NCBI GenBank assembly: GCA_965204725.1
Contig: OZ242005.1
Span: forward strand, 3,936,001 to 4,000,000
Direction: 5' to 3'
DNA: 64,000 bases
Origin: Candidatus Latescibacterota bacterium
GTDB taxonomy: Bacteria > Latescibacterota > UBA2968 > UBA8231
This document shows, one piece after another, positions 33,101-50,563 of this stretch (position 1 is the first letter of the stretch; every line of letters starts with the position of its first letter). The notes beneath the pieces were generated by a model, which searched no databases, had not been told where the DNA came from, and saw nothing but the letters and a program-made list of their open reading frames with translations. The translations under genes and the position numbers were made by a program.

Positions 33101-33514
33101 GAAGTTTGGGTTGTTCAGCTGATCGGGATCGGTGTGCTGAATGCGGGGCGGCGAAGCACCGAGCGGCATTTGGCGGCGGAACGAATACACCTTTTCGGCT
33201 AGTGATAGCTCGGCCAGTTGTATGTCTGTATCGGGCGCGAATTCAGCGGCGATGTACGCACGCCCCTCGGAACTGGTTGAGCTCAACAGGACCACGCCCC
33301 GCAGACTCTGCACGAGCGACTCCAAGGGCGCGGTAATCTGCGACTCAACGGTGAAAGCAGAAACCCCAGGCCACTCAACGCTCACGGTGAGTTGGGGAGC
33401 GTCTAATGGGCCGCCGATGTCAATAGGTACCAGCCGAAAACAAACCAGCCCCAATGCCAACACCGCCACTCCGGCTACGCCCACGGTCACGGGCCTGTCC
33501 AGCAACTTGTGCAT
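30155..33514 (-). CDS. RND efflux permease subunit
   Basis: GLVVDNAIV, GIAVNNSILL, RLRPIFITTLTT; 12-TM layout with a mid-protein insertion. Confidence 0.92.
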   Translation of the reverse strand: MHKLLDRPVTVGVAGVAVLALGLVCFRLVPIDIGGPLDAPQLTVSVEWPGVSAFTVESQITAPLESLVQSLRGVVLLSSTSSEGRAYIAAEFAPDTDIQLAELSLAEKVYSFRRQMPLGASPPRIQHTDPDQLNNPNFVRLMLLGREDSAVLRQYADEHLRLPLQSVPGVEQVTVRGGSQQHILLEMNHLLAQHWQIDQGVLSQALAAQGIQTRFLGETPSQGTLSSIQLRGNLADLETLKYAPLKRLEHGRPVYTGDVATVRYQPGPPSSLYRINGRNAIAIQFEKTPGSDMIRASQHIREKVAELSQHLPEGFEIIALHDKGAELERDFRFLLRWSAFSIAFIALVLIGVFRRLQTVLLILSSIWLSVLGAVVLFFALGIHLNLATLAGFTIGFGLVVDNAIVIYDYLHRRTQSCGPEGDLRAAVAAGLRDGVHPIVVSNLTTLGAFLPVFFLSRELQGYFEPFVVALGLTLIIALLVALTLIPTFFYQTVARSAIVPVAPTDRIYRLYRTVLSFCVRRKVLFLGLVVWLVGVPLWILPDELGDKRELVPAASADKITTRQQYKAGLATRDTTASSSLFGRTTFLPKSSQEDRPLWERLYDDGADLYNQVWSNPIVAAVKPVLFKVVGGATYFLFRDLSHRLDRQPPRHLLRELSEGFSLIVTLQMPYNSHISRMDKVLRDVEKQLFNFAPYIEGIITQSSGQYGLIQVLIKEEYRASDIPYILYERLAAYESNIGGVGFSVYGKGMDGFGKHLGGSRSVSNQLSIHGFNFGQVGNIAEDIAKQLKQRRSRRIKDIHIDFAYGPSQREIVAQFDHRKTAPLGLGHINLVHEIQDRLAVGTALAHVYMDGRQYAVSVADTGASRMTIRRLSQVALDAHPARIGHVAHIQKRAVTPSIKRENQRYIRTIGFTVLGSYSYSNSILQDIVDHTSLPYGYSLSNPMIYEMDKKERRELGGVVLLAVLLVWMVAAALFESWTQPLLVLIALPLALIGMGAALFLSDAPFNQGSYAALLLLMGIAVNNSILLVYTISTTLKRQPTAPTEAIAQAAFQRLRPIFITTLTTIAGFLPMLLQGEKTDFWYTLALGTSGGLASSSVLLVLVVPLCAIWLATARQNIRC

Positions 33515-33515
33515 G

Positions 33516-36500
33516 TCAGTCTCTCGCCCGAGCGACGACCGAGTAGAGAATGGGGACGGCGATCAGGATCAACAAGGTTGATAGAGAAATGCCGCCGACA
33601 ACCGCCCACGCCAAGGGACGGCGCAACTCGGCGCCACTGCCGCTAGACAAGGCCATGGGCAACAAGCCGCAGACCGTGGTCAAAGTCGTCATGCAGATGG
33701 GGCGCAAGCGCTTTTGTCCGGCTTCCACGATGGCTTGGCCTAGGTCGCCGCTGGCCCGGTAGTGCCGGTGGATAAAATCGGTTTTGACGATGGAATCGTT
33801 CACTACAATTCCCACGAGGACGATACATCCCAACAAGGACATGATATTTAGTGAGTTACCCGTTAGCCACAGGGTACAGACGACCCCAATGGACGCGAGG
33901 GGCACGGCCACGACGATCACAAAAGGAACGACGAGGGACTCAAACTGGGCGGCGAGAATGAAATAGACCAATACGATGGAAATGGAGAGAATGAGGTACA
34001 GGTTTTGATAGTGTCCCTGCAACTCGGTGTGCTGGGTGCCGATCTCAATCCAGTATCCGGCGGGGATGGCTAGCTGGGGCAGGAATTCGTTTAGCCGAGC
34101 CTTGGCTTCGGCAAAGTCGAGGCCCTGTAAGGAGGCCGTGACGGCGACGGTGCGTGCTTGGTTTTCGCGGTGGATGGCTTCGTAGCCCTCGCTCGGTTTG
34201 AGGCGGACCAACTGAGCAAGCGGAACGGCGACAAGGCGGCCTTGCGTTCTGACTGGGTACTGCATGTTGAGGACGCGCCACAAGTCGAGTTCGGCGCGGT
34301 GCTCAGCTCGCACCTTGATGTCTATGCGATCGGCAAAATTGACGAACTGGGTGGGCGTACTGCCTTGTAGTTGGCGGTTGATAAAGTCGGCAAGTTCGGC
34401 GAGGCGGATGCCGTACTGTAGGGCCGCTTCCCGCTGTACCTCGACGTTGAACACTTGCTTGCTGGCCTGCAAATTAGCGCGGGCGTTGGCAAAGCCGGCG
34501 TCCCGCTGCATAAAATCTGTGATCCGCTGGCTCAAATCGGCGAGGACGGTTAGCTGCGGCCCGATAATTTTCAAGTCGAATTGAGTCTGGTGCTGCTGAA
34601 AGAGCTGCTCAAAGGCCGATTCCGGTGGCGACAGGGAGAGGGTTAGGCGACTGAACTCCCCAAAGGCCGCTTCGATCCGCTCGGCGACGTTTGCGCTTTC
34701 GCGGCCCTCGGCAATCTCGATGTCTAGCACCGCTTTGTTCAGTCCGAGTCGGTACTGTCGGTCGAGGATTTCGCATGTGATGCCGATGGATGAGAGCACG
34801 GACGCGACGCCGTCCTCGCGCAGCAGGCGGCGTTCCAGTTTGGTAACTTCCGCCGCAGTGGTCGGCAGATTGGTCCCTGGCGGCAGTTCGGCGCGGAGGA
34901 CTAAATGCTTCCTATCGACGGTGGGTATGAGCTCTCGCTCTAGATCGGTGGCTAGATAGGTACTCAGTGCAAGGAGGACGAACAGTGTGCAGAAGACTTT
35001 CCAGCGATGGCGCAGGGCGCGGACGAGGCCGTACTCGTACAGCAAGAAAAACTTATTGAACAGGTATTGAAAGAGGTCTATGGTGAGGAGGAAAGGGGTG
35101 GCTGCTACGCGCCCAATGCGGTAAAGCCGCCCCGTTGTATTAGGTGCGTTCCAAGACCGAGCCGACAGCATGGGCAGTAGCATGATCGACACGATCAAAG
35201 AGGCTGCCAACGCCAGAGAGATGGTGACGGCCTGCTCGTAAAAGAGTGCCCCAGCGATCCCTTTGACGTACACCAAGGGCATGAAAACCGACATGGTGGT
35301 AAGGGTCGAAGCCGTGATGGCCAAGCCCACCTCGCGGGTGCCGCGGACTGCTGCTTCGCCCGGATCGTGAGACATTTCGCGGTAGCGGTAGATGTTTTCC
35401 AGCACGACGATGGAGTTGTCAACTAAGATGCCGATGCCTAAGGCGAGGCCCCCCAACGACACAACGTTAAAGTGGATGTCGAGAAAGTACATACAGATAA
35501 AGGTGGCAATAATGGAGATCGGTATGGACAGCCCCACGATGAGCGGGTTTTTGAGATCGCGAAGAAAGTAAATGAGAATGACAAAGGCAAAGAGTCCGCC
35601 CAAGTACAGAGATTGTAGGACGTTGTGTATGGATTCGCTGATGAACTCGGCTTGGTCGAAGACCGGCACGACGTCGAAGTCCGCGTACTCTTGCGAAAAG
35701 CGATAGAGGCTGTCATACACTTTTGCGGAGGCTTCCACGGTGTTGGTGCCGGCCTCCTTGAACACATACAGGGTAATAACTTCGTGTCCATTCAAACGGG
35801 TGTAGCCGGTGCGTTCCGCATAGCCTTCTTCGACGCGGGCCACGTCCTGTAAGCGGATTAGTTTGGGCGTTAGCTGCACCGGGGTTTGGCGGATTTGTTG
35901 TACGTCGGTGAACTCGGCTTGTATGCGCAGGGGAAACTGGGCAAAACCGTCGCGGATCGAGCCGCCGAAGTGGGTTATGTTGAACTGCTTGAGACTGGAT
36001 TCCACCTCTGCAAAGCCGACGTTATAGCGCAGGCTTTTCTCGGTGTCGAGATGGATTTGGATCTCGCGGTCTAGCCCGCCAGCGACCTGCACGTAGGCCA
36101 CGCCATCGATCTGCTCTAACCGGCGTTTGACGACGGCCTGCGCCACTTCCTTCAGTTCCATGAGGGCGGCTTGGTGGTCCCAGGTGGAGCGGGGCTGTTC
36201 GACCCGATCGCCGGTGACCACGAGCGTCATAATGGGGGCGGCCGAAGGATCGAAGCGCAAAATGGTAGGGCGGCCGGCCGTTTGCGGCAGGTGGCCTTGA
36301 TCGAGGCTGCTGCGTGCCTTGATGAAGCTGAGGTCCATGTCGCTGCCCCAGTTGAACTCGACCTCGACAAAAGAGATGCCGTCTTGCGAGATGGACTTGA
36401 GCCGCCGTACGCCGCTTATGGTGCTGAGAGATGCTTCGATGGGACGGGTGACATGTTCTTCTACGTCGCGGGCACTTAGGCTGGGTGCGTCCGTGCGGAC

Positions 36501-36638
36501 GATGAGCCGGGGAATGTCGATGTCGGGGAGGAAATCTACGCCTAGCCGAGAGAGAGAGTATAAACCCAAGAGGAGCGCGGCGAGAAAGCAAACCGTAGTG
36601 GCCACGGGTCGATAGACGGCAAAGCGCACGATACGCAT
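33516..36638 (-). CDS. RND efflux permease subunit (second paralogue)
   Basis: Start MRIVRFAVYRPV at 36638; GILVDNSIVVLENI, GIVVNDSI, RLRPICMTTLTT. Confidence 0.93.
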   Translation of the reverse strand: MRIVRFAVYRPVATTVCFLAALLLGLYSLSRLGVDFLPDIDIPRLIVRTDAPSLSARDVEEHVTRPIEASLSTISGVRRLKSISQDGISFVEVEFNWGSDMDLSFIKARSSLDQGHLPQTAGRPTILRFDPSAAPIMTLVVTGDRVEQPRSTWDHQAALMELKEVAQAVVKRRLEQIDGVAYVQVAGGLDREIQIHLDTEKSLRYNVGFAEVESSLKQFNITHFGGSIRDGFAQFPLRIQAEFTDVQQIRQTPVQLTPKLIRLQDVARVEEGYAERTGYTRLNGHEVITLYVFKEAGTNTVEASAKVYDSLYRFSQEYADFDVVPVFDQAEFISESIHNVLQSLYLGGLFAFVILIYFLRDLKNPLIVGLSIPISIIATFICMYFLDIHFNVVSLGGLALGIGILVDNSIVVLENIYRYREMSHDPGEAAVRGTREVGLAITASTLTTMSVFMPLVYVKGIAGALFYEQAVTISLALAASLIVSIMLLPMLSARSWNAPNTTGRLYRIGRVAATPFLLTIDLFQYLFNKFFLLYEYGLVRALRHRWKVFCTLFVLLALSTYLATDLERELIPTVDRKHLVLRAELPPGTNLPTTAAEVTKLERRLLREDGVASVLSSIGITCEILDRQYRLGLNKAVLDIEIAEGRESANVAERIEAAFGEFSRLTLSLSPPESAFEQLFQQHQTQFDLKIIGPQLTVLADLSQRITDFMQRDAGFANARANLQASKQVFNVEVQREAALQYGIRLAELADFINRQLQGSTPTQFVNFADRIDIKVRAEHRAELDLWRVLNMQYPVRTQGRLVAVPLAQLVRLKPSEGYEAIHRENQARTVAVTASLQGLDFAEAKARLNEFLPQLAIPAGYWIEIGTQHTELQGHYQNLYLILSISIVLVYFILAAQFESLVVPFVIVVAVPLASIGVVCTLWLTGNSLNIMSLLGCIVLVGIVVNDSIVKTDFIHRHYRASGDLGQAIVEAGQKRLRPICMTTLTTVCGLLPMALSSGSGAELRRPLAWAVVGGISLSTLLILIAVPILYSVVARARD

Positions 36639-36649
36639 GGCCGGTGCTC

Positions 36650-37816
36650 TCAGCGTTGGACGACCACGACCTTGGCGTCGTGGGCTAGATTGTAGTGCCC
36701 GAATACGATAAGTTCTTCGCCTGCTTCTACCCCTTCGGTAATCTCGATAAAGTCGTCGTTTTCGAGGCCGGTCTTGACGTAGCGCCATTGGGCTAGCCCG
36801 TCTTGGTGGATGAACACTAGCTTGCGGTCGTCGCGGGTTAGGAGCGCGTCGCGCGGTATGAGCAGCCGCTGCTGAAAGGCTTCGACGCCGATTTCGAGCC
36901 GGGCGAACATACCGGGTTTGATGCGCCGGTCGGGGTTGGCCACTTGGATCAAGATGCGGCAAGTTCCGCTTTCACTATCGACTACCGGACTGATGGCTTT
37001 GACCGCACCCACAAACGAGTCGTCGGGATACGCGTGCAACGCGATGGTTGCTTGGGCACCGACGTGTAGCAGGCGCAGTTCGCTTTCGAGGCTGCTGACT
37101 TCGAGCAGCAGCGGGTCGAGTGCCAAAAGCTGCATCAGGGACTGGCCTTGGGTGACCCAAGTGCCGAGGGTTACTTCCACTTCGGTAACAGTGCCGACAA
37201 AAGGTGCTGTAATAACTGCATTTTTGCGGTCGAGGTCGGCCTGCTTCAGGGCGAGTCGAGCGCGGGTTAGGCCCGTAGTGCTGGCGATCCATTCTTTGGG
37301 GGTGCCGCTGGCAAACAGCGATAGAGCTTCTACGTCGTTGATGTTGGTGGTGTCGGCTTTGGTCTTGATGAGGTCGCGTGCTTGGTGCCCGCGGTCCAAT
37401 TGGCCGCTCAACAAGGCTATGGAGGCGTATTCCCGTAGGGCGCGCGTCATCTGGTCCTTTGCCTGTAGGTACGCGATGGCATAGCGTTCCGCGTCTAGCT
37501 CCAAAATAGTATCTCCCTTGCTGACGAAGCGACCTTCCTCGACGTTGAGGCGGCGCACTTGGCCGGCTATTTGGGAGACGATAGCCGTCTCCATTTTGGC
37601 CTTGAAGACGCCTGTCGAGGTGATTTTCTGAACGAGGTCGCGGTGCTGGACGGTGTCTATGGCGACCGGAGTGTTGGGTGGTTCAAGTTCGGGGAGAGTG
37701 TCGAGGGATTCATCGCGGGGATTTTGCGATGGCGCGGAATCGCTGAAAATCGCAAATAATAGGGTGAGTAGCCCAAGCGCGAGAGCGATATATAGGAGTT
37801 TCTTTAGTGTCGTCAT
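36650..37816 (-). CDS. RND periplasmic adaptor (MFP)
   Basis: N-terminal TM, VEEGRFVSKGD, ITAPFVG, IKPGMFA. Confidence 0.92.
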   Translation of the reverse strand: MTTLKKLLYIALALGLLTLLFAIFSDSAPSQNPRDESLDTLPELEPPNTPVAIDTVQHRDLVQKITSTGVFKAKMETAIVSQIAGQVRRLNVEEGRFVSKGDTILELDAERYAIAYLQAKDQMTRALREYASIALLSGQLDRGHQARDLIKTKADTTNINDVEALSLFASGTPKEWIASTTGLTRARLALKQADLDRKNAVITAPFVGTVTEVEVTLGTWVTQGQSLMQLLALDPLLLEVSSLESELRLLHVGAQATIALHAYPDDSFVGAVKAISPVVDSESGTCRILIQVANPDRRIKPGMFARLEIGVEAFQQRLLIPRDALLTRDDRKLVFIHQDGLAQWRYVKTGLENDDFIEITEGVEAGEELIVFGHYNLAHDAKVVVVQR

Positions 37817-38892
37817 TTTGTAAGCTCGCGATCTTTGCCATGGACAAGATCAACGCTCAGTTGCGATCTGCTCAAGGTTTGAGAGTGAGCGGCTAGAACA
37901 TCTAGGGCCTTCCGTTCTTGGATGGCGATGGCGTGAAGCCGGGCCTGAATGCGCGGGATTAGCCTTGGCGTCTCCTTGACTACGCCTTTGAAGCACAGAT
38001 TTTTGGCGACAAACCAACTCTGAGAAATCGACTCGAATTCCCGGCCGAGAGCACTTAGGCCATCAAGGCCGCAGATCCGACTCGCATAGTGGAGAAAGGC
38101 ACCGTGTCCTTCTCGGTTCAGGGCGATCTCGAGGAACAGTTCAGTACATTGATTCAGGCGTGTTTTGAGAAGTTGCTTTTCGCATTCCGTCCATATTTCT
38201 ACGTCCTCGGCGAGCTGCTCAATCCCGGCCACGCCCGGTACGCAATTGGCCCGTATGCTGGTTGCAGACATACTGGCGATATTGCGTTGCAGAATGGCGA
38301 CTACATGGCGCAGACGCACCCTAGGCGGCTCGTCCGGTACGTCTAGCCAGAGCCAGTCAAAGCAGGGCTGGTCCGCGCCAGCAATAGCCCGCGTGTCCCA
38401 ACACGATAGAAAGAGGTCCAAGGGGATGTCTCGCGCCGAAGGCTGCCACGGCGAAGGATCTATCAAATGAACGGTCCCAGCCCCATCATCATACCCGGCG
38501 ACGATGCACTGATGGTCTGAGTGACGCTGGCGCGGATAGAACCCGGCTCCCGCTAGATGGAAGACGTCTAGATTGATGGATACAGGCGCATCTGCATCCA
38601 ATCGTTTTTTGACTTGGTTCCACGCCGCCCTACCATCATCAGAAGTCTCGTCGAATGGCTTAATGCCGAACCGCTGGATCATGGAAAAGAGGGGAGCTGG
38701 GCGACTCCTGATGTTGAACGATTCGCCTCTAAAGTAGAAAAAGTCCCAGTTGTAAAAAGCGGGCAGCGACGGTTCCCATTGGTAGTAGCGCAACAAGCTG
38801 TCGAGCATGACGTAGAGGCAGTTGTAGTGCCGATTAGTGCAGAAGGGAATACCGCTAATGCGCTTTTTCACAACGAACCTGCTTCTTGACAC
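37813..38892 (-). CDS. BtrH-like papain-fold protein (putative acyl-ACP transferase or peptidase)
   Basis: NCLY, PVSINLDVFHL, HSDHQCIVAGYDD, LIDP (Cys-His-Asp pattern); helical C-terminus; near an ACP gene. Confidence 0.75.
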   Translation of the reverse strand: MSRSRFVVKKRISGIPFCTNRHYNCLYVMLDSLLRYYQWEPSLPAFYNWDFFYFRGESFNIRSRPAPLFSMIQRFGIKPFDETSDDGRAAWNQVKKRLDADAPVSINLDVFHLAGAGFYPRQRHSDHQCIVAGYDDGAGTVHLIDPSPWQPSARDIPLDLFLSCWDTRAIAGADQPCFDWLWLDVPDEPPRVRLRHVVAILQRNIASMSATSIRANCVPGVAGIEQLAEDVEIWTECEKQLLKTRLNQCTELFLEIALNREGHGAFLHYASRICGLDGLSALGREFESISQSWFVAKNLCFKGVVKETPRLIPRIQARLHAIAIQERKALDVLAAHSQTLSRSQLSVDLVHGKDRELTK

Positions 38893-39524: not shown

Positions 39525-39793
39525 GGCATAGGCGATCGGGCTGCCAACCGCTGTTCTATGTATGAGGTCAAGGTCCGAACTGAATCGAATAGGTCCACCC
39601 GCAGCTCTTCGTCCTCCACTTCAAACCCGAACTCTTCTTCAAGGGCAAAGACGATCTCTAACGCGGCAATGGAATCGGCGTCTAAACCCTCGCCAAATAG
39701 GGACTCGTCATCGGCGATGTCCTCGGGATTGATCTTGAGTTGGAGCCCTTGGACGAGGGCTTGTTTCACTCGTTGAGCTATATCGTCGCGCAT
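39521..39793 (-). CDS. Acyl carrier protein
   Basis: 90 aa, acidic; LFGEGLDADSIAALEIVFALEEEFG with the phosphopantetheine Ser. Confidence 0.9.
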   Translation of the reverse strand: MRDDIAQRVKQALVQGLQLKINPEDIADDESLFGEGLDADSIAALEIVFALEEEFGFEVEDEELRVDLFDSVRTLTSYIEQRLAARSPMP

Positions 39794-41685
39794 GGCTGCG
39801 CCTCTTCCTCGGCAAAGTAGTTGATGACCACCTCGATAGCCCGATGGACATCCGCTTCGTCTGCAATGGATACTGCGGGAAGGCCGAACGTCTGTTCCAA
39901 GCGATTCAGTTTGTCGCGCACCTCGGCCGCGGTCATGGGTCGCGGTTTAATAGAGGTTCGGCCATAGGCCGTGCGAATGTGCTTCGCTTGATTGCTCATG
40001 GCCAACAGGAGCGTCGGTGCTTGGCACAGGGCGCGAATGCCGTTGATGGTGTCTTGGATGTAGTCGTCAGTGTCCACGCTGTTGACCACCAATAGGCAGG
40101 CTTGGGGCTTGACGCCCATCAGGAACGCAAGGGTCGGCAGCGTATGGGTCTGCTGTTCCTCTACGTTATAGGGCACCGTGCCCGATTGAGTGCCGACTAA
40201 AATTAGGTCCGGCCGCTTGCGGTGGTTGATTTCCCGTATCTTGGCGTCGAGATAGAGCGCGTAGTAGTCTAGCGGCATCTCAATGGACGCCGCGTAGCCC
40301 ATGGGGAACGCGCATTCCATGCCAAAGAGGGCCGAGTGGTGTTCGGTGCCGATTTGCCCTATCTGGTAGCCTAGTTCCAGCAGCCGGCGGCGCAGGGCGA
40401 GTTGTAGGGTAAATTTACCTTGCTGTGAGCTGGTGCCTGTGACAGCTAAGACCGGCACATCCACTTGGGGCCAGTACTCGGCCGAACGGAGGGTTTGCCG
40501 TATTTCTTTGGAGGACAACGCTGGATAGTATAGCCGCAGGCCCTTGGCGTCAGCCTGTTCGTACAGACCGGCGTACCGCTCGTGCGGCAGGGCCAAGAGG
40601 CTGAATACATGGACGCCTTGGTCTATGGCGGTTTGAACGGCTTCGCGCAGCAGGTCTCTTTTGCGGATGCGGCTAAGTTCGTCCATATAGCCCAAAACGA
40701 GGGTATCGGCACCCCGTAGGGAGGCGGTCAGGCTGGGGGCAATCGGCAGGCCCGCTGGCGGCAGACCAATGGCCTCGCCCGCGTCTTGGCCAACCAAGCC
40801 CTTGCCGACCAGATCGCCGACCCCGACGATCTCAAAGCCGAGCAGGTCACGCCCGCGCACCAGCGAGTGCATCTCCTTGTTGTAGGGATAGAGGGCGGCT
40901 TTCTGAATGTGGGCGAACGAGTCATCAGCATGGGACAGAGAAGTGGTTTTGGGCACGGTGGTGCGGGCAGCTTCGGGTTGAGCATGCGTGCGGAGGATTT
41001 CGCGCACCTGTGCTAAGCCCACCTTGGGATGAGTTTGGCGGATGAGGGTGAGCAAGCCGGTGATGTGGGGCGCGGCAAAGCTGGTGCCCCTCAGCATGAC
41101 CTCGGGCGGCTCCAGCCAGCACAGCCGCTGGAGATCGCCCCAGGCCACGCACTCGATGGCGGCTCCTTGGCGATAGTAGTAATCGCACAGCCCCTGCAAT
41201 AGCCCCGCGCCCACGCCGATGACTTGGGGTAAGTGGGCCGGGTAGCTTTCGCGGCCTTCTTCGTGATCGGCGGCTACCATTAGAACGCCTTGGTCTGCGG
41301 CCTGTTGGCAGATGCGGGCCAAGGCGTCGCGCTGCGTTACTTCGGTGGTGCCCAAACTCAGGTTGATGATGTCTATACCTTGGTCTAAGGCCCATTCAAT
41401 GGCCTTGACTAGCAAGCGGTTGTCGGCTTGTAGCAATTCATCGAAGATGCGGACGCTGTAAAGATCCGCCTCGGATGCTTTGCGACGGATGATGCCGGCG
41501 CAGGCCGTGCCGTGGCCGGCGCAATCGGCGTGATCGGCACTTTGGCGGATCGCGCCATCTGGCCCGATAGTGAGGGCGACGCCACCGGCTATTGGGCCGA
41601 TTTTGGGGTGATTGGGCACGAGGCCGCTATCGACGATAGCGACTTTGACGCCGTGGCCGGTATGGTTCGCAAGGGAAAAGCTCAT
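39778..41685 (-). CDS. S8 subtilase fused to a DUF1611/TIGR04066-like P-loop domain
   Basis: VAIVDSG, GHGTACAG, GTSFAAP triad; then YPYNKEMH, GTSSQQGKFTLQL, VGTQSG; no signal peptide; ATG 41685. Confidence 0.82.
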   Translation of the reverse strand: MSFSLANHTGHGVKVAIVDSGLVPNHPKIGPIAGGVALTIGPDGAIRQSADHADCAGHGTACAGIIRRKASEADLYSVRIFDELLQADNRLLVKAIEWALDQGIDIINLSLGTTEVTQRDALARICQQAADQGVLMVAADHEEGRESYPAHLPQVIGVGAGLLQGLCDYYYRQGAAIECVAWGDLQRLCWLEPPEVMLRGTSFAAPHITGLLTLIRQTHPKVGLAQVREILRTHAQPEAARTTVPKTTSLSHADDSFAHIQKAALYPYNKEMHSLVRGRDLLGFEIVGVGDLVGKGLVGQDAGEAIGLPPAGLPIAPSLTASLRGADTLVLGYMDELSRIRKRDLLREAVQTAIDQGVHVFSLLALPHERYAGLYEQADAKGLRLYYPALSSKEIRQTLRSAEYWPQVDVPVLAVTGTSSQQGKFTLQLALRRRLLELGYQIGQIGTEHHSALFGMECAFPMGYAASIEMPLDYYALYLDAKIREINHRKRPDLILVGTQSGTVPYNVEEQQTHTLPTLAFLMGVKPQACLLVVNSVDTDDYIQDTINGIRALCQAPTLLLAMSNQAKHIRTAYGRTSIKPRPMTAAEVRDKLNRLEQTFGLPAVSIADEADVHRAIEVVINYFAEEEAQPCATI

Positions 41686-42170
41686 GGGCCTGCCCCCGCG
41701 TCTGTGGCGACTGGGAATCTGGCCGCCTGCCAAGCTGGCCAACCGCCCGTCAGAACATAGACTTCACTGCGGATCGACTCTTTGACGAGCCGCTTGGCTA
41801 GTGTGTAGCTGCTCCGGCAACCGCCTCCTGAACAGTAAGTGATGACTCGGGTGTCAGCCGGGTAAGACGCCAGTGTTTGGCGCAAGCTATCCGCAGAAGC
41901 ATGGGAAGGCAGGTGCAATGCTCTAGGGATATGACCGTCCTCATAAGCGTGCGTTGAGCGTGCGTCCACAAACACTACGTCGCCTTGGTCGAAAGCCTGC
42001 TTGGCCACGGGCACGGCCAGCCGATGAACGCCCTGCATGGCCCCAAGAGTCACATCGGCCTCTAGTTCCGCTATAGAGAACTGCTTGGTATAGAACCAGA
42101 TCACCCATGCGCTGCCAGCCAGCACGACCAGCCAGAGGATCAGCCCCATTCTGAGTAGCAGGCGGCTCAT
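41682..42170 (-). CDS. Membrane-anchored rhodanese-like protein
   Basis: TM helix; FVDARS...GHIPRA, YCSGGGC, LTGGWPAW. Confidence 0.85.
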   Translation of the reverse strand: MSRLLLRMGLILWLVVLAGSAWVIWFYTKQFSIAELEADVTLGAMQGVHRLAVPVAKQAFDQGDVVFVDARSTHAYEDGHIPRALHLPSHASADSLRQTLASYPADTRVITYCSGGGCRSSYTLAKRLVKESIRSEVYVLTGGWPAWQAARFPVATDAGAGP

Positions 42171-44607: not shown

Positions 44608-44699
44608 GGTAGCAACCGACGATTTGGGTGGCCCGGTCCCAGTGCTGGGACCGGACCGCTGCATGACCAAAGTATGGGCCTTGAAGTTAGAGGCCGATC

Positions 44700-44897
44700 C
44701 TAGCACTTATCGCTCGTTTTGGTTGCGGGAGGAGTGCAGTCATCCCAAATATCCCAGTAATCTATTACGCACTCGTACTCTTCCGTACAAGCGTCGAAAT
44801 ACACTAACTCCCAGTCGCCCCCGTGAGAGCCCTCACGCTCGTAGGCCTGAACCAAGGCGGTGCGCCTGTTTGGGGTTTTCTTGCTGAGTGTTTTCAT
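44700..44897 (-). CDS. Putative RiPP precursor peptide (65 aa)
   Basis: AAGGAG RBS 7 nt before ATG; MKTLSKKTPNRRTALVQAY-EREGSHGGDWELVYFDACTEEYECVIDYWDIWDDCTPPATKTSDKC. Confidence 0.75.
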   Translation of the reverse strand: MKTLSKKTPNRRTALVQAYEREGSHGGDWELVYFDACTEEYECVIDYWDIWDDCTPPATKTSDKC

Positions 44898-44969
44898 GAG
44901 ATTGCTCCTTAGTAAAGAGTGATGAATGATAGAACCAAGGCCCATAATACTGGTTCGTGATAGGATATC

Positions 44970-46130
44970 TTAGTTTATATCAAAGGACAGCGTATATGTC
45001 TCGACCGTGCCATTGGATATCTCCGCCCTTTCACTCGACGGTTCTCTCCATATATACAGATGCCCCTGCCAAGCGGCGACACTGTTCCAAGGGGCCATGT
45101 TGGACACGAGAGACTCTACCTTCGCTCTATCGAACGTATATGTCTCCATGTTAGACGAAGAGGTAAGATCGTAAAGTATCCACCATTGTGCATCTCTAGC
45201 CACTTGGTGAGAGACAAATAGATACCGATCGTCTATTAGGGTCATGTTTTTGAGCGTGGTCATCTCCAATCCATACATACCCTCAGACGAACCTCGCCCG
45301 ATGCTATGGTAGCGTTCAGGCAAGGAGACGAAGCCCTCTGGGCGCAGACCAAACTGCCGGATGATCTGTCCGGTGTCGGCGTCGATTTCCTTGACGAGGT
45401 AGTCGTTGGGGCCCAAGTAATACAGCCGATGCCGCGCTGGACTGTAGCGCACTTGGGCAAACGCGTTCATGCGGAAGGAGACAAACTGCTGTTCATCGGT
45501 GGACAGGGGGGTGCGATAGAGCGGTTCCCAAGTCGTGGGATCCAAACTCTGTATCTCCATGATCTTCATCGGGTTTGTTTTCAGCAGAAACACTTCGCCC
45601 GCCCGGCCGATTAAAAGCCGACTTCCCTTGAACGAACGCGTCCCATCTATGTACTGCCCTTGACGATCATAACGGACGATCTGGCCGAACGTCTTGTCAA
45701 GGATATATAGCCGGCCGTGTGAGTCTATGGCCATATTTCTAGGGGAACCATACTCGCCAGGGCCGCGTCCTTGCTGGCCAAAGGAGCGAATATAATGTCC
45801 ATCCGTGCGGCTAAACTCATGGGCTTGGTCACCGATGCTATCCGTGATCAGCAAGGTGCCCTCTGGCGAGAAGCTCAGCCAGCGTACACGTCCGATACCC
45901 GGGGAGTCCTCATCAAAGGCGAGTTCGATCTGCTGTTGAAAAATCACGTCGACCTCGCCGACATATTCAACGGGCGTTTGCGAAATGTTGGTCTCATCGA
46001 CTTCGCCGACTTGGTAGGCGGTGTACCACGCTTTGACGCTGTCGCGGATGTCGCTCCACAGTCCGGCGTCGGCTGCCGTGCTACCGAGGGCGACGAGGAA
46101 TGTGCAGATGTGAAAATTTCTGGCGTTCAT
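44970..46130 (-). CDS. Secreted 6-bladed (NHL-like) beta-propeller
   Basis: Signal peptide; FGQQGRGPGEYGSP..MAID..GRLYILD..YDRQG. Confidence 0.82.
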   Translation of the reverse strand: MNARNFHICTFLVALGSTAADAGLWSDIRDSVKAWYTAYQVGEVDETNISQTPVEYVGEVDVIFQQQIELAFDEDSPGIGRVRWLSFSPEGTLLITDSIGDQAHEFSRTDGHYIRSFGQQGRGPGEYGSPRNMAIDSHGRLYILDKTFGQIVRYDRQGQYIDGTRSFKGSRLLIGRAGEVFLLKTNPMKIMEIQSLDPTTWEPLYRTPLSTDEQQFVSFRMNAFAQVRYSPARHRLYYLGPNDYLVKEIDADTGQIIRQFGLRPEGFVSLPERYHSIGRGSSEGMYGLEMTTLKNMTLIDDRYLFVSHQVARDAQWWILYDLTSSSNMETYTFDRAKVESLVSNMAPWNSVAAWQGHLYIWREPSSERAEISNGTVETYTLSFDIN

Positions 46131-46156: not shown

Positions 46157-46235
46157 AAAATAGCAATCGTCGCGGTGCTTGTATATCGGGTGATCACCTG
46201 ATTTTTGGCTGATTCTTATCGGGTGATCACCTGAT
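46157..46235 (-). promoter_or_regulatory. Promoter with tandem 18-bp palindromic boxes (copy 2)
   Basis: ATCGGGTGATCACCTGAT at 46185-46202 and 46218-46235; extended -10-like TGCTATTTT on the minus strand. Confidence 0.85.
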
Positions 46236-46262: not shown

Positions 46263-46823
46263 TCAAGAGCCAGCCTCCGCGCCGGTTGCTGTAGGATACC
46301 CGGACTTCTTCCAAATCGGCCAGCCTCCCTTCAGGATGTAGATTTTCAGCTTGAACTCATCGGTTGATGCGCTGAAGAGGCGAGTGGTTAAGTTGCCGGT
46401 CTCGCAAACGGCTCGCTCGCAATAGACGATGATGCGAGCATCAGACGCTAAGACTTGGCGCAGGTGCTCAACAGGAGCATCATAAGGCAGATGCAACGCA
46501 CTGGGGATATGACCGGATTCGTATGCGGATGTTGAGCGCAAATCCACAAAGAGGGCGTCGCCGCGGTCAAGCTCCTGTTTGGCCTCGGCCGGGTCAATGC
46601 GGCTTGTTATAACTTCTGACGAGGGCTGACCTGAGCAGGACCAGAGGGCATACCCGCTGGCCAATGCGCCCAGCCATAGGAGGAAGCCGGCCTTGGTGAG
46701 GAGCCGCGGCCACGCTCGGCCTTTCTTGCTACGCTTTTTCATGAGCTTGATCCTTAAAGAGGGAGGAGTGATGCAGGCGACGAGGAGCGTGCGGTCGTGA
46801 GAATGAGAATCGGTAGTGTTCAT
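46263..46823 (-). CDS. Second membrane-anchored rhodanese-like protein
   Basis: FVDLRS...GHIPSA, YCERAVC, LKGGWPIW; starts at 46823 or 46742, both with AAGGA. Confidence 0.82.
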   Translation of the reverse strand: MNTTDSHSHDRTLLVACITPPSLRIKLMKKRSKKGRAWPRLLTKAGFLLWLGALASGYALWSCSGQPSSEVITSRIDPAEAKQELDRGDALFVDLRSTSAYESGHIPSALHLPYDAPVEHLRQVLASDARIIVYCERAVCETGNLTTRLFSASTDEFKLKIYILKGGWPIWKKSGYPTATGAEAGS

Positions 46824-46849
46824 AAGGCTCCGGTCCTTTCGTTGTGATA

Positions 46850-46928
46850 AAAATAGCAATCGCCACGGTGCTTGTATATCGGGTGATCACCTGATTTTTG
46901 GCCGGTTCTTATCAGGTAAACACCTGAA
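46850..46928 (-). promoter_or_regulatory. Promoter with tandem 18-bp palindromic boxes (copy 3)
   Basis: ATCGGGTGATCACCTGAT 46878-46895 and ATCAGGTAAACACCTGAA 46911-46928; 46821-46928 duplicates 46128-46235. Confidence 0.85.
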
Positions 46929-47125
46929 TTTTTCCGAGAAAACGCTGATATTGGCTTGTGGCTGTGTGCGCGTCAGGACATAGACCACGCCACGATAGGT
47001 GATGGTTTGGGTCGCCGCCGGAGTTTATCGCAGGCGAGCTGCATGGGAAGGGTACAGGGTGCGGGAGGGACTAAGACCTCGATGGCAGGAGGCCTAGGCG
47101 TAGTCTCAAATGACTGCTGCTGTGC

Positions 47126-47776
47126 TTAGAGCGGCTCGTCCTCCCCATCCATCAGCCCTTCTCGGATCGCGTACGCTGTCAACGCGGTCGCACTGTGCAA
47201 GTCGAGCTTATCCATTATGTGCTGGCGATGAGTGCTGATGGTCTTTTCACTCACGTGGAGTGCCTCGGCTATTTGCGCGGTTGTCTTTCCTTCGGCGACG
47301 CATCGCAGCACTATGCGCTCGCGTGCCGTCAGGGGAGAAGGTTTGCTGGGGATAGTAGCGTTATGCGCGTGACTGGGGACGATGGGGTTGGTCAAGTGCG
47401 AACTCACGTACTCGCGGCCGGCTTGGACCTCCCAGAGTGCTTCTACCAACTCGTTGATGAAATTCGTTTTCAGCAGGTACGCCGAGCCGCCTGCCTCGAA
47501 TAGGCCATCTACAAAACGCTTGTCCGCGTGTTCCGACAGCACGACGAACTTAATATGCGGATACGTGGCCCGTATCTGGCGCGTCACCTCGATGCCGCTC
47601 AGGTCGGGTAGTCCTATGTCCACGATCACAATGTCGGGTTGATAGGCGGTGATCAAGTCAATGGCCGTGCGACCATCGGCGGCCTCGCCGATTACCTCAA
47701 TCCCGCTTTCTCGTTCGAGATGCGCGTACATTACTTGGCGCACCATAATATGGTCTTCCACTAGAAAAATCTTCAT
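47126..47776 (-). CDS. NarL/FixJ-family response regulator
   Basis: VEDH, IVDIGLP, YLLK, LTARE...GKTT.QIA..L.VSEKTISTHR. Confidence 0.95.
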   Translation of the reverse strand: MKIFLVEDHIMVRQVMYAHLERESGIEVIGEAADGRTAIDLITAYQPDIVIVDIGLPDLSGIEVTRQIRATYPHIKFVVLSEHADKRFVDGLFEAGGSAYLLKTNFINELVEALWEVQAGREYVSSHLTNPIVPSHAHNATIPSKPSPLTARERIVLRCVAEGKTTAQIAEALHVSEKTISTHRQHIMDKLDLHSATALTAYAIREGLMDGEDEPL

Positions 47777-48846
47777 GAGGAATGGCCCTCCTCTTCAGCC
47801 AAGGTGCTCGGAAGCGTTATCAGACAGCGCGTACCTTTTCCGAGCGTCGATTCGATCGTCAAATGACCACCGATATGGAGCAGATGCTCTTGAATACTGA
47901 ACAGACCGAAGTGATTGCCTTGGATCATCTGGTCCAGATGCGCGACATTAAAGCCCGCGCCCGCGTCTTCTACCACCACCTGTAATTGGTCTCCGTCTCG
48001 ACGCAGGGAAACGGTGGCTTGGTCTGTGTTGGCGTGCCGAGCGACATTGACCAGCAACTCGCGAATGGACCTGTACACTAAGCCGCGTATGTCGTGGCTG
48101 TGTATCTCCCATTTATCCTCGGCTTCCACGCGCACGGTCAACCCGTCCTGGGAATGGACGAGGTCGCCAAGAGCCTCTAGGCCTGGTACGAACCCTATGC
48201 CGTAGAGCACGGGTGAACTGCTATCGAATGTCATGTCCCGGATGATGTGAGCCATCTCGTCAGTTTTTTTCTCCAATGCATCAATCAAGGCTTCGCGCTC
48301 TGTGTCGTCGGCCTGCCGCAGTGCAGCGATATTGACCTTCGACAGTACCAGCATCTGCCCGATTGAATCGTGGAGAGCACTCCCAAGGCTCACCCGCTCG
48401 TGCTCCCTGTCGATTAAGAGCTTGGCCGCCAGCGTCTGCAACTTCTGGATATGTCTCTCCATGCGCCTGTGCTGGCTGATTTTGCGAATAACGCCTTGAT
48501 AGTATATGGGGGTCCCGTCCGCGGCTCGCCAAATCGAGGCCGTTATTAGCGAATCGAAGTGGTGCCCGGTGCGGGTTCTAAACGTCGCGGTAAAGTCGCG
48601 CACGAACTCTTCCCGTTCAATCTCTTCCCGAAACCGCTCGTACTCGTCTAGACTCGCGCAGAGGCTGCGAATGTTCGAGCCGAGCAAGTCGGCGCGTTCG
48701 TAGGCAAACAGGACGTTGGCGGCCTTGTTGGCATCGACGATGGTCCCGTCCTGCTCGGCAATGACGAGAGCGTCGGGCGACGCTTCAAATAAGCCGCGAT
48801 AGAGGGCTGGGTCGCGTCTCAATTTCTTCAGCTTAGGCTTGCACAT
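47773..48846 (-). CDS. Cytoplasmic PAS-HisKA_3 sensor kinase
   Basis: PAS (FEASPDA...DANKAA), ALHDSIGQ, ELLVNVARHA, DAGAGF, HFGL; no TM; ATG 48846. Confidence 0.9.
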   Translation of the reverse strand: MCKPKLKKLRRDPALYRGLFEASPDALVIAEQDGTIVDANKAANVLFAYERADLLGSNIRSLCASLDEYERFREEIEREEFVRDFTATFRTRTGHHFDSLITASIWRAADGTPIYYQGVIRKISQHRRMERHIQKLQTLAAKLLIDREHERVSLGSALHDSIGQMLVLSKVNIAALRQADDTEREALIDALEKKTDEMAHIIRDMTFDSSSPVLYGIGFVPGLEALGDLVHSQDGLTVRVEAEDKWEIHSHDIRGLVYRSIRELLVNVARHANTDQATVSLRRDGDQLQVVVEDAGAGFNVAHLDQMIQGNHFGLFSIQEHLLHIGGHLTIESTLGKGTRCLITLPSTLAEEEGHSS

Positions 48847-48904
48847 GGATCCACCTTTTATGAGTTCGGGTATCCTGCTGCTAGTCCCGCTAGCCGATTC
48901 AAAA

Positions 48905-49531
48905 CTATGTCGGTTCTTCTCCATCCGCCAACTTTTGCCCCGCGCCCCGCGCCGCCCCATAGCTTTCCCGCGTATCCACATCCACGAAAATACCCTCGTC
49001 CTCAACGGGCACTTCCACAATATGGGCTGCGTTTTTTGCTAAGACCGGCCGCGCCCCCCGGTCGCCCGTCAACGCGAGCAAGGCGTCTCGATAGGCCCGG
49101 CCGATGGCCACGGGATGGCCGCGTCGTCCAGCGCACACCGGCACGGCGATAGCGCGTCTGCTTTTTAACGCCCCAGCGACCTTTTCCATCGTTCCCCCAG
49201 CGACCTGCGGCATATCCCCCAGCGCAAACAAATACCCTTTCTCGCCGCCGGTCGCTTCCACGCCCACCCTGATAGAGGCGGCCATCCCCTCGGCAAAATT
49301 TGGATTGTGTACCAGCCGCACGGGATAGCGGCTCAACGTTTCCTCTACCGCTGCCCGCTGATGCCCGGTCACCACAACGACCTCCCCCAAACCCACCGCG
49401 CAGATTCGCTCCACCACGACTTGGAGGACGCATCGGCCCTCCCAAGGCAGCAGCAACTTATTGGCCCCCTCCATCCGTGCGGAACGCCCGGCCGCCAGTA
49501 CGATCCCGCTAAGGTCTGCGAATCCGGTCAT
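48905..49531 (-). CDS. mocA: Molybdenum cofactor cytidylyltransferase-like protein
   Basis: LAAGRSARM..NKLLL, GMAASI, LGDMP, RGHPV, GDRGAR, DVDT; next to cox genes. Confidence 0.85.
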   Translation of the reverse strand: MTGFADLSGIVLAAGRSARMEGANKLLLPWEGRCVLQVVVERICAVGLGEVVVVTGHQRAAVEETLSRYPVRLVHNPNFAEGMAASIRVGVEATGGEKGYLFALGDMPQVAGGTMEKVAGALKSRRAIAVPVCAGRRGHPVAIGRAYRDALLALTGDRGARPVLAKNAAHIVEVPVEDEGIFVDVDTRESYGAARGAGQKLADGEEPT

Positions 49532-49632: not shown

Positions 49633-50067
49633 ATGCAGTTTGCAGGCTCTCATACCTTTAGTGCCCCGCGGCAAATCCTGTGGGACTTGCTCAACGACCC
49701 CGAGGTCTTGGCGCGCATCACGCCGGGCGTCGATACCTTGGAGCAGACCGGCCCCAGCCAGTACCGAGCCGTGCTGCACATCAAAATGGGGCCGATCAAC
49801 AGTGCCTTCAACGGCGCGCTACAAGTCGTCGATAGCAAGGAGCCAGAAAGCTATCGTCTGCTCATTGATGTCGATGGCAAGATCGGCCAGATCAGGGCCG
49901 AGGGCCGCGTCCGGCTGGCCGACCAAGGGCGCGAGACCACGGTGGCTGTCGAGGGCGGCTCCCAGTTGACGGGCCGATTGGCGAGCATGGGCCAGCGCCT
50001 GCTCTCGGGCGTGGCGCGGATGTTTACCAACCAGTTTTTCAAGGCGCTGGAGCGCGAGATACCTTAA
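49633..50067 (+). CDS. coxG: CoxG (SRPBCC) protein
   Basis: WDLLNDPEVL...PG, GRLASMGQRLL...QFF. Confidence 0.88.
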   Translation: MQFAGSHTFSAPRQILWDLLNDPEVLARITPGVDTLEQTGPSQYRAVLHIKMGPINSAFNGALQVVDSKEPESYRLLIDVDGKIGQIRAEGRVRLADQGRETTVAVEGGSQLTGRLASMGQRLLSGVARMFTNQFFKALEREIP

Positions 50068-50089
50068 TCCGATTCGATAGGAGGCGACT

Positions 50090-50554: not shown

Positions 50555-50563
50555 GAGGCCGCT

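Follow-up and report, generated by a model that had tools for sequence, protein, structure and literature searches.

The described systems that come closest to the locus examined here are the CLI_3235/PapA-type clusters. According to the text of PMC12715619 available to us, PapB targets Cxxx(D/E) motifs and tolerates other spacings between the Cys and the acidic residue, and in the leader of PapA, Y comes directly after ...KEPIRA. A preliminary description of the present DNA had named both the CX3D target and the AY leader end, in agreement with this account. The accessible part of PMC10731318 describes a P. polymyxa CLI_3235 cluster with a 19-aa leader, an ABC protein, a TIGR04068 radical-SAM (rSAM) enzyme, a TIGR04066 protein, a TIGR04069 acyl carrier protein (ACP)-related protein and an S8 protease; the SacP23 leader is likewise 19 aa. 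The role guessed there for the TIGR04066/DUF1611 protein and its carrier-type partner is 'immunity'. A second point of reference is AziU3/AziU2, described in the consulted portion of a review as an aziridine synthase that acts by displacing a sulfate, put in place by a sulfotransferase, and not as an acyltransferase.

In a window of 64,000 nucleotides (the whole stretch of DNA that was analysed) from a Candidatus Latescibacterota bacterium, we find a short gene that very likely encodes a secreted, Cys-rich, leader-bearing peptide, as judged from sequence conservation. On balance we lean towards a reading in which the gene is a genuine precursor at the head of an operon's processing section, the operon shares a module with the CLI_3235/PapA systems but has no thioether rSAM enzyme, a fused S8-DUF1611 protein cuts the leader, an ACP-linked pair of proteins tailors the core and disulfides form after export.

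A conserved precursor gene

The precursor ORF begins with an ATG at 44897 and stops at 44700-44702 on the minus strand (65 codons), and its translation is MKTLSKKTPNRRTALVQAYEREGSHGGDWELVYFDACTEEYECVIDYWDIWDDCTPPATKTSDKC. An alternative in-frame start at 44945 would yield an 81-aa precursor. The shorter form is favoured because homologues begin at M-x-x-L-x-K-K behind the same ribosome-binding site (RBS), whereas the sequence 5′ of this motif is unconserved. The G+C content is about 51% around the precursor site and about 60% across the window.

The features singled out in the preliminary description are borne out by the sequence. The strong AAGGAG RBS occupies 44910-44905 and is 7 nt from the ATG, residues 1-19 are basic and end in VQAY, with the leader ending at residue 19, and Cys37/43/54/65 and Trp29/48/51 are in the positions given. 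The core is acidic (13 Asp+Glu versus 3 Lys+Arg), and a motif scan of the whole 65-aa precursor finds no C-x3-[DE], although Cys is followed by Glu or Asp at spacings other than CX3.

Table 1. Features of the precursor operon and its upstream region (window coordinates).
Feature	Coordinates	Strand	Basis or remark
PAS histidine kinase	47773-49020	minus	syntenic in relatives
LuxR-type response regulator	47126-47776	minus	syntenic in relatives
Second rhodanese	46263-46859	minus	own palindrome pair at 46879-46927
Upstream genes (the three above)	46263..49020	minus	
Pair of 16-bp palindromes (TCAGGTGATCACCCGA), 33 bp apart	46186..46234	.	55-105 bp upstream of propeller gene
Exported 6-bladed NHL-type beta-propeller, 386 aa	44970..46130	minus	signal peptide; Pfam DUF5128/DUF4934/TolB_like
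Ribosome-binding site AAGGAG	44905..44910	minus	7 nt 5′ of precursor ATG
Precursor peptide gene	44700..44897	minus	65 aa; residues 1-19 form the leader (ending AY) and 20-65 the core
12-bp GC-rich hairpin, no U tract	44630..44657	minus	between precursor and next gene
Membrane-anchored thioredoxin-fold oxidoreductase, ResA/TlpA type, 229 aa	43918..44607	minus	CQPC motif
ABC exporter, fused TMD + NBD, 579 aa	42182..43921	minus	domain scans; without C39 peptidase domain
Membrane-anchored rhodanese-domain protein	41682..42170	minus	PF00581 8.8e-19; active-site loop CSGGGCR; TM helix; likely ATG in translation
S8 protease fused to TIGR04066/DUF1611 Rossmann + P-loop module	39778..41685	minus	PF00082, PF17396, PF07755
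Acyl carrier protein, 90 aa	39521..39793	minus	PF00550 2.6e-10, above cut-off; DS phosphopantetheine-attachment motif
AziU2 homologue, beta-sandwich, 210 aa	38868..39500	minus	profile vs PDB sequences: AziU2/Azi28 1.5e-19
BtrH_N/DUF4872 papain-fold protein, AziU3 homologue	37813..38892	minus	Pfam; profile AziU3 2.3e-8
RND-type efflux module	30155..37816	minus	domain scans; periplasmic adaptor 36650-37816, permeases 33516-36962 and 30155-33514

Precursors with the same start, RBS and leader stand in syntenic operons of five further genomes of the genus, and a Shine-Dalgarno-like purine-rich stretch (AAGGAG, or AAGGA in L012) precedes all seven precursor genes examined. A profile built from 13 distinct locus-derived precursors, 11 of them in Latescibacterota-labelled records, was searched against 1.84 billion representative proteins at E<=1e-3 and found 29 proteins, 28 of which are 62-82 aa long. 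One representative is identical to the window peptide, and thus at least one public pipeline called the gene; the earlier expectation that it would be easily missed by gene callers does not hold throughout.

All 37 distinct homologues are short, at 62-82 aa; their leader is conserved and their core varies. The leader-bearing precursor proposed in the preliminary description is strengthened by this conservation among homologous clusters: M1, L4, Y19, W29 and C43 are invariant in the 13 aligned precursors, and K6, R11 and C54 are nearly so. The number of core Cys residues is even in 32 of the 37 members (exactly four in 25) and odd in the other five. AY-type leaders also occur in more distant S8-DUF1611 clusters (L026, L036, L047, L048, L051 and L052), which upholds the 'shared leader type' half of an earlier proposal. 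The 'new core type' half fares less well, given that 18 of the 37 relatives carry the CX3D-type motif C-x-x-G-[DE] at the aligned third Cys, where the window peptide has CTPPA. The TIGR04065 model, which had been suggested as a check, gave no match to the peptide at an E-value limit of 10, a search in which HMMER filters drop most weak matches, and matched none of 20 scored candidates in the peptide's own genome.

An AY-leader scan of 61 related loci returned candidates in 17 of them, or in 15 once false ORFs were removed; a second L020 ORF and the L049 and L057 candidates were judged false by eye. Among these 61, most S8-DUF1611 loci with 47-57% identity yielded no precursor with this pattern. 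A conserved leader, a variable core and adjoining processing and export genes, as expected for a RiPP precursor, are all found here. The family therefore appears to consist of leader-bearing, Cys-rich secreted peptides, and its locus-derived members come mostly from Latescibacterota-labelled records.

A candidate leader protease and export genes

The genes between 44897 and 30155 are all encoded on the same strand and either overlap or are separated by short gaps (Table 1), and the operon is syntenic across several species, the RND module included. The S8 part of the fused S8-DUF1611 protein retains the D/H/S motifs IVDSG, GHGTA and GTSFAAP. The TIGR04066 match of this protein (115.9 bits) is below the cut-off of 200. 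Its sequence contains no signal peptide, and it is taken as cytoplasmic; we presume that it is the leader peptidase. DUF1611 is, we assume, linked to the DgcN acetyltransferase, and a PDB sequence search with the DUF1611 part gave nothing useful. S8-DUF1611 loci number at least six in one genome and are numerous in Latescibacterota-labelled records.

An exported propeller and putative control elements

A propeller gene adjoins a precursor gene in homologous loci as well. Structure prediction of the propeller with the core peptide gave a median score of 0.77, compared with 0.02 for the best control; this mark was reached by 58 of 80 solved complexes and by 2 of 110 mismatched pairs, counts that are only a rough guide here, where our own alignments were used. 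The prediction runs shared at least 78% of contacts, with partner pLDDT values of at least 72. The propeller is thus predicted to bind the core. Propeller identity did not track core identity across 36 non-independent pairs (Spearman rho 0.10, p 0.57), a comparison that includes one partial propeller and in which the pairing of propellers with precursors is ambiguous where the two alternate.

The palindrome that lies upstream of the propeller gene (Table 1) gives 11 strand-matches, corresponding to six sites in three pairs, compared with 0.15 expected. Palindrome pairs are also present in L011/L030 of a sister species. The pair is a candidate operator to which the neighbouring LuxR-type response regulator may bind.

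The hairpin 3′ of the precursor gene folds with -43.2 kcal/mol for 106 nt (z -3.3). Hairpins of -20 kcal/mol or lower follow 13 of 16 homologous precursor genes, in comparison with 12 of 80 control gene ends, one of which (-27.0 kcal/mol) may correspond to the L017 precursor ORF itself, annotated from a start codon further upstream. This structure is probably an attenuator or an mRNA-stabilizing stem.

The carrier protein, the AziU2/AziU3-like pair and possible cysteine handling

The operon's carrier protein scores with general ACP models, not with TIGR04069, in HMM scans. It is followed by two adjacent, overlapping genes that together encode homologues of both AziU subunits. The model of the AziU2-like protein (pLDDT 63.7) matches PDB entries 7wuw/8gs1 (TM 0.63-0.69, E 1e-9), and that of the BtrH-fold protein (pLDDT 89.9) matches AziU3 chains (TM 0.72-0.76, E 2.8e-16) as well as CtaG and CcbD (E about 1e-10). 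Sequence identity of the pair to AziU2/AziU3 is only 17-22%. Pfam and NCBIfam scans of the operon revealed no sulfotransferase gene, and the operon holds no obvious ACP-loading enzyme. A PDB sequence search with the single BtrH-like sequence was uninformative. An NCBIfam 'DarH' match was also set aside, as a paper's table gives darE, not darH, as BtrH-like.

Cysteine handling might involve two other operon products. The CQPC motif of the oxidoreductase (C89-Q90-P91-C92) is invariant in 10 of 10 sequences, and its profile matches a thioredoxin-like protein (5.5e-10) and ResA (2e-6) among PDB sequences. The L022 homologue matches AhpC-TSA. A thioredoxin-like oxidoreductase gene is found in 15 of the 61 related loci; with the window included, the count is 16. 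We infer that the four core Cys residues are handled after export by this protein and the rhodanese, probably as two disulfides. However, ResA/TlpA-type proteins are usually reductants rather than oxidants, which counts against a disulfide-forming role.

These two sets of genes bear in opposite directions on the strongest competing explanation, in which the product is a secreted bacteriocin or signal peptide whose leader is cleaved off and which carries disulfides only, while the ACP and the AziU2/AziU3-like proteins act elsewhere or on nothing. The predominance of even Cys counts, the dedicated CQPC oxidoreductase and rhodanese, the exporter, pump and two-component regulator, and a propeller that could be an immunity-type binder would all suit such a peptide. 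Moreover, L036 has a precursor, an S8-DUF1611 gene and an ACP gene without the AziU2-like/BtrH-like pair. We nevertheless consider this explanation unlikely, if worth serious attention. The ACP, AziU2-like and AziU3-like genes lie close together, overlapping or with only small gaps, within the precursor operon itself, and an ACP homologue is retained in 47 of the 61 related loci, mostly directly 3′ of the S8-DUF1611 gene. Many clusters (14 loci and 24 loci counted) contain a BtrH-like gene or the distantly related f3, and the catalytic-type residues C19, H118, H121 and D139 of the BtrH-fold protein are invariant.

Radical-SAM enzymes in sister loci and in the genus

Two sister loci, L022 and L023, encode a homologous precursor together with an rSAM enzyme that is SCIFF/nif11/PapB/QhpD-like. 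An alternative supported by this arrangement is that the window peptide is an ordinary ranthipeptide precursor, whose core acquires Cys-to-Asp/Glu thioethers through an rSAM/SPASM enzyme with its gene elsewhere. Similarity to CLI_3235/PapA in the S8/TIGR04066/ACP module and in the AY leader would fit this, and at least one CX3[DE] motif is present in 24 of the 37 precursor relatives. The window peptide itself lacks this motif, but its core has Cys followed by Glu or Asp at other spacings, and PapB tolerates spacings other than CX3 (PMC12715619, in the text available to us).

The enzyme that defines ranthipeptides could not be traced in the operon, its genome or the searched genomes of the genus. 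Pfam and NCBIfam scans found no thioether rSAM in the operon. The only SPASM enzyme over its family cut-off in the 5.43-Mb genome, which is estimated to be 94% complete and so could be missing a piece, is an anaerobic sulfatase maturase (534.7 bits versus a cut-off of 484). At E<=1e-15, none of 31 genomes of the genus matches the L022 rSAM, whereas 10 of 15 genomes from a second genus of the same class do. We therefore regard an ordinary ranthipeptide as very improbable.

AziU2-like genes occur in 11 related loci, none of which has an rSAM gene in the sequence present, several of the related loci ending at contig ends. The two rSAM-bearing sister loci have no AziU2-like gene and carry a Kelch/GlxA-like gene in that place. 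This distribution fits a swap, in a small sample of related loci. We tentatively advance, as a minority view of our own, that in this lineage an AziU2/AziU3-type pair has taken over from the rSAM enzyme beside the S8-DUF1611/ACP core of a ranthipeptide system, and that the product would then belong to a new class of ribosomal peptides defined by a carrier-linked, non-radical modification. One candidate is acylation, dependent on the ACP, of Lys or of the N-terminus exposed by leader removal; alternatively, an AziU-style intramolecular displacement could create an aziridine or other ring on the peptide.

Less probable still, the peptide would act like QhpC, as a protein-derived cofactor or a small subunit of an enzyme with Cys/Trp/acidic crosslinks such as those of quinohemoprotein amine dehydrogenase, and would not be a secreted product. 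The closest named family of the S8 domain is QhpE (E 5.9e-43), although its 146.8 bits fall short of the cut-off of 165. Cys, Trp, Asp and Glu are abundant in the core, which includes one invariant Trp, and the L022 rSAM resembles QhpD (1.6e-67). However, the operon has no genes for a QhpD-type rSAM, a flavoprotein, a heme protein or a dehydrogenase subunit, the core is highly variable between species, and the operon includes an ABC exporter and an RND pump. Finally, a chance ORF without a product is scarcely credible: short ORFs are frequent at the G+C contents given above, but the start, RBS, length and residues are conserved across species with a variable core, and the operon position is conserved as well as the 28 short relatives being present in the protein library.

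Proposed mechanism

In the reading that we favour, transcription would start upstream of the propeller gene, where the two-component LuxR-type regulator would bind the paired palindromes. The conservation of hairpins 3′ of precursor genes suggests that this element raises the ratio of precursor to enzyme message. The cytoplasmic S8-DUF1611 protein would then recognize the conserved 19-residue leader and cut at or near AY, as leader conservation and the parallel with PapA suggest. The ACP, possibly served by the DUF1611 module, would carry out together with the AziU2-like and AziU3/BtrH-fold proteins a carrier-protein-dependent tailoring of the core, for which acyl transfer to an amine seems the most likely chemistry. 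After the ABC exporter has delivered the peptide to the periplasm, the CQPC oxidoreductase and the rhodanese would act on the four Cys residues, probably giving two disulfides. The exported propeller, predicted to bind the core, could serve as an immunity protein, chaperone or enzyme, and the adaptor-RND pump would expel the product.

This lineage keeps the module, leader and precursor while no rSAM was found in the genus genomes searched, which suggests that the module has a job of its own. That job can be studied here without anaerobic rSAM chemistry. It thereby becomes possible to test what the TIGR04066/DUF1611 protein and its carrier-type partner do, a matter not settled in the portions of the CLI_3235/PapA literature consulted. 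The operon also provides a new setting for AziU2/AziU3 in a ribosomal-peptide operon, a placement that we did not find in the literature searched.

We know of no cultured members of the Latescibacterota. Their peptide products are unexplored. The literature on Latescibacter RiPPs, in the text available to us, offers only antiSMASH class counts, and the TIGR04066 literature found includes none on Latescibacterota. Searches of main texts returned nothing joining DUF1611 to RiPPs, the DUF1611 literature found being unrelated, and a search for BtrH with RiPPs gave only unrelated work.

Comparison with known systems

The QhpC/QhpD/QhpE system of quinohemoprotein amine dehydrogenase, in which QhpC is the gamma subunit, resembles the window operon in the S8 domain, which is nearest to the leader protease QhpE, and in its small Cys/Trp/acidic peptide substrate. 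It differs in that the operon lacks QhpD and dehydrogenase subunits and has a variable core and export genes. The extracytoplasmic thiol-disulfide helpers of the MauD/MauE and TlpA/ResA types, which accompany Cys-rich peptides, share with the operon a membrane-anchored CxxC thioredoxin-fold protein, here accompanied by a rhodanese. Paralogous clusters carry MauE and AhpC/TSA genes, whereas the window operon has no MauE gene.

BtrH acylates small-molecule amines. The papain-fold amide synthases BtrH, CcbD and CtaG, which depend on a carrier protein, correspond to the window protein in their BtrH_N/DUF4872 domains, in its fold matches to CcbD and CtaG and in the invariant Cys, His and Asp residues; the ACP gene lies two genes upstream of the BtrH-fold gene. 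The title of one CcbD PDB entry names a complex with a PCP domain. In contrast, the presumed acceptor in the window is a ribosomal peptide, and the window protein is closer to AziU3. The AziU3/AziU2 proteins of azinomycin biosynthesis (PDB 7wuw, 8gs1) are likewise represented by two adjacent homologous genes with matching predicted folds (TM 0.63-0.76), but the window pair is located beside an ACP in a ribosomal-peptide-type operon in which no sulfotransferase gene was seen.

The freyrasin-type CLI_3235/PapA-PapB clusters of Firmicutes share the most with the window operon. In both, the precursor is short, acidic and rich in Cys, and its leader of about 19 residues ends in AY (compared by eye with the PapA text available to us); both also have an S8 protease, a protein of TIGR04066/DUF1611 type, whose TIGR04066 score in the window is below the cut-off, an adjoining small carrier protein and an ABC exporter. 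The resemblance extends to CX3D in relatives of the window peptide and to the PapB/SCIFF-like rSAM enzyme in two sister loci. Unlike those clusters, the window operon, its genome and the genus genomes searched yielded no such rSAM enzyme, the core lacks CX3D/E and the precursor lacks a TIGR04065 match. The window operon also has a general ACP in place of TIGR04069, fuses the S8 and TIGR04066 parts in one protein, and adds the AziU2/AziU3-like pair, the CQPC oxidoreductase, the rhodanese, the propeller and the RND pump.

The precursor gene

On the minus strand, an open reading frame running from an ATG at 44897 to a stop codon at 44700-44702 encodes a 65-residue peptide, MKTLSKKTPNRRTALVQAYEREGSHGGDWELVYFDACTEEYECVIDYWDIWDDCTPPATKTSDKC, and is preceded by an AAGGAG ribosome binding site 7 nt 5′ of the start codon. 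Its translation places cysteines at positions 37, 43, 54 and 65 and tryptophans at 29, 48 and 51, exactly as in the preliminary description of this DNA, and contains the basic N-terminus closing in VQAY that was noted there. A motif scan likewise agrees that the window peptide has no C-x3-[DE]. A longer in-frame start at 44945 is unsupported: homologues begin at the same M-x-x-L-x-K-K position behind the same ribosome binding site, and the frame upstream is unconserved. This reading frame is a genuine precursor gene.

The source genome carries a single copy. A search of 61 related genomes gave a precursor match at E≤1 in 16, the source genome included, and homologous reading frames were confirmed in genomes G013, G008, G004 (two copies), G023 and G022. 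Iterating a profile over the six-frame ORFs of the loci retrieved brought the family to 13 distinct members, which are 21-45% identical to the window peptide. Across the aligned members, residues M1, L4, Y19, W29 and C43 are invariant, K6, R11 and C54 are nearly so, and the stretches between conserved residues vary. When 1.84 billion representative proteins were searched with the precursor profile, 29 matched at E≤1e-3, 28 of them 62-82 aa long; one representative is identical to the window peptide.

Among 37 distinct members, AY closes at residue 19 in 31 (32 if the second AY of the locus L020 peptide is counted), the core has four cysteines in 25 and an even number in 32, and 24 contain at least one CX3[DE]. 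At the aligned third cysteine 18 of the 37 read C-x-x-G-[DE], where the window peptide has CTPPA. At locus L026 (3600-3956, plus strand), an AY-type leader is fused to a Gly/Ala-rich hydrophobic core. Paralogous clusters encoding the S8 protease-DUF1611 fusion (S8-DUF1611; L026, L036, L047, L048, L051 and L052) seem to combine the same type of leader with cores that differ widely.

Operon organization and distribution

Every gene of the operon is on the minus strand, either overlapping its neighbour or separated from it by a short gap, and the gene order is preserved in a sister species. A second rhodanese, a LuxR-type response regulator and a PAS histidine kinase lie upstream.

Features of the operon and associated palindromes (window positions)
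Feature	Position	Strand	Remark
NHL-type propeller, 6-bladed, exported	44970-46130	-	operon
Precursor	44700-44897	-	translation
12-bp hairpin	44630-44657	-	between precursor and thioredoxin-fold gene
Thioredoxin-fold protein, membrane-anchored	43918-44607	-	invariant CQPC; ResA-like
ABC exporter	42182-43921	-	without peptidase domain
Rhodanese, membrane-anchored	41682-42170	-	
Cytoplasmic S8 protease	39778-41685	-	fused to TIGR04066/DUF1611 module
ACP	39521-39793	-	90 aa
AziU2 homologue	38868-39500	-	
BtrH_N/DUF4872 protein	37813-38892	-	AziU3 homologue
Adaptor and two RND permeases	30155-37816	-	
Palindrome pair 1	27421-27469		before gene at 27559
Palindrome pair 2	46186-46234		before propeller gene
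Palindrome pair 3	46879-46927		before second rhodanese

Relatives of S8-DUF1611 occur in 61 loci, 54 of them in records titled Latescibacteria or Latescibacterota, and one Latescibacterota genome (a single record) has at least six (L024, L032, L048, L053, L060 and L064). In the related loci sampled across genomes the partners vary and include GNAT, glycosyltransferase, Rce1-like protease, MauE and AhpC/TSA genes. Locus L014 (6714-12240) is closely related to the operon and encodes an S8-DUF1611 protein 84% identical to that of the window; neither a precursor nor a thioredoxin-like gene was found at this locus and the ABC match is partial. L014 may be a decaying copy.

Regulatory signals and flanking genes

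Folding computations predict a stable hairpin 3′ of the precursor gene. Hairpins of ≤-20 kcal/mol follow 13 of 16 homologous precursor genes versus 12 of 80 control gene ends, and hairpins of ≤-26 kcal/mol follow 9 of 16 versus 1 of 80, the precursor loci being mutually non-independent. The hairpin sequences are unrelated across homologues.

A 16-bp palindrome, TCAGGTGATCACCCGA, and its variants form three pairs with 33-bp spacing, each upstream of a gene start (11 strand-matches versus 0.15 expected). The three pairs suggest a small regulon, possibly controlled by the adjacent LuxR-type response regulator, and pairs are also present in a sister species. Downstream of the pair before 27559, the plus-strand segment 27559-30153 encodes a protein of 269 aa that matches no Pfam family and a Matrixin-like (M10) metallopeptidase of 558 aa carrying a type IX secretion sorting domain; these genes may share the regulon. 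Adjoining the far end of the operon is an 825-aa penicillin-amidase-family (Ntn hydrolase) gene (24817-27294, plus strand). Divergent from the regulator genes, CoxG and [2Fe-2S]-subunit genes followed by a 790-aa ORF (49633-52936, plus strand) look like a carbon-monoxide/xanthine dehydrogenase-type cluster.

Propeller and probable cysteine handling

All close loci have a propeller gene next to precursor genes, and in loci with two precursors the two kinds of gene alternate. A predicted complex of propeller residues 24-386 with core residues 20-65 has a median score of 0.77 versus 0.02 for the best control; this score is attained by 58 of 80 solved complexes and 2 of 110 mismatched pairs, counts that are only rough because own alignments were used. 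At least 78% of contacts are common to the runs, partner pLDDT is at least 72, and confident contacts come from core residues 28-34 and 41-49. Propeller and core identities are uncorrelated, which speaks against specific co-evolution of the two partners.

A single membrane helix lies at the N-terminus of both the CQPC protein and the rhodanese, and paralogous clusters contain MauE, AhpC/TSA and rhodanese genes. Together with the even cysteine counts, these features point to handling of the precursor cysteines as disulfides following export.

No radical-SAM enzyme found

Two sister loci, L022 and L023 (S8-DUF1611 61% identical), each have a homologous precursor and a 535-aa radical-SAM (rSAM)/SPASM protein whose best families are the SCIFF, nif11, PapB and QhpD maturases. 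Domain-family scans revealed no rSAM among the window operon genes. The source genome has one SPASM match above family cut-off; it shares 25% identity with the L022 enzyme, and its score places it among the anaerobic sulfatase maturases (534.7 bits versus a cut-off of 484). With the L022 enzyme as query, none of 31 genomes of the source genus matches at E≤1e-15, and 10 of 15 genomes match in another genus of the class (1-3 copies each). Within the sequence available for each locus, thioether-type rSAM genes were seen in 5 of 61 loci (L022, L023, L065, L072 and L074), 2 of which are among the 54 Latescibacter-labelled ones; several loci end at contig ends. This distribution is consistent with the lineage having lost the enzyme. 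The alignment shows that the CX3D Asp is absent from the window peptide and a few others (L009, L010 and L013), which also fits such a loss.

A putative carrier-protein-dependent tailoring step

Of the 61 loci, 47 contain an ACP homologue, in most cases immediately 3′ of the S8-DUF1611 gene. The two genes after the ACP encode homologues of both subunits of the AziU3/U2 complex (AziU2: profile E 1.5e-19, predicted fold TM 0.63-0.69; AziU3: profile E 2.3e-8, TM 0.72-0.76), which an excerpt of a review terms ‘functionally an aziridine synthase’, acting via sulfate displacement (PMC12559475). The AziU3-like protein, in which Cys19, His118/121 and Asp139 are invariant, also matches CtaG and CcbD, and the title of one CcbD entry names a complex with a PCP domain. 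In 24 further loci the ACP is followed by a member of a distantly related family (hhalign 83%, E 9e-6). We infer a putative carrier-protein-dependent tailoring step on the precursor peptide. In rSAM-bearing L022 (12563-13915) and at the same place in L023, a Kelch-repeat protein resembling the radical copper oxidase GlxA occupies the position of the AziU2-like gene.

Comparison with ranthipeptide systems

QhpE is the nearest family for the S8 domain and TIGR04066 for the C-terminal half, with neither score reaching its cut-off. The Paenibacillus polymyxa CLI_3235 cluster, as set out in part of a published account, comprises a precursor with a 19-aa leader, an ABC transporter, a TIGR04068 rSAM, a TIGR04066 protein, a TIGR04069 ACP-related protein and a subtilisin-like protease (PMC10731318). 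In extracts of another paper the PapA leader runs to KEPIRA and then Y, and PapB targets Cxxx(D/E) (PMC12715619). As far as these excerpts go, the window operon has genes of the same kinds as the processing module of the CLI_3235 cluster, and its VQAY resembles the PapA leader end; the module and leader end therefore appear to be common to both, bearing out the earlier proposal of a PapA-type leader. The CLI_3235-family precursor HMM, TIGR04065, which had been proposed as a check, does not match the window peptide; the peptide is outside that family and not classifiable as a ranthipeptide. The most fitting description is a substrate of an rSAM-less form of the CLI_3235/PapA system that has an ACP-linked AziU2/AziU3-type tailoring pair.
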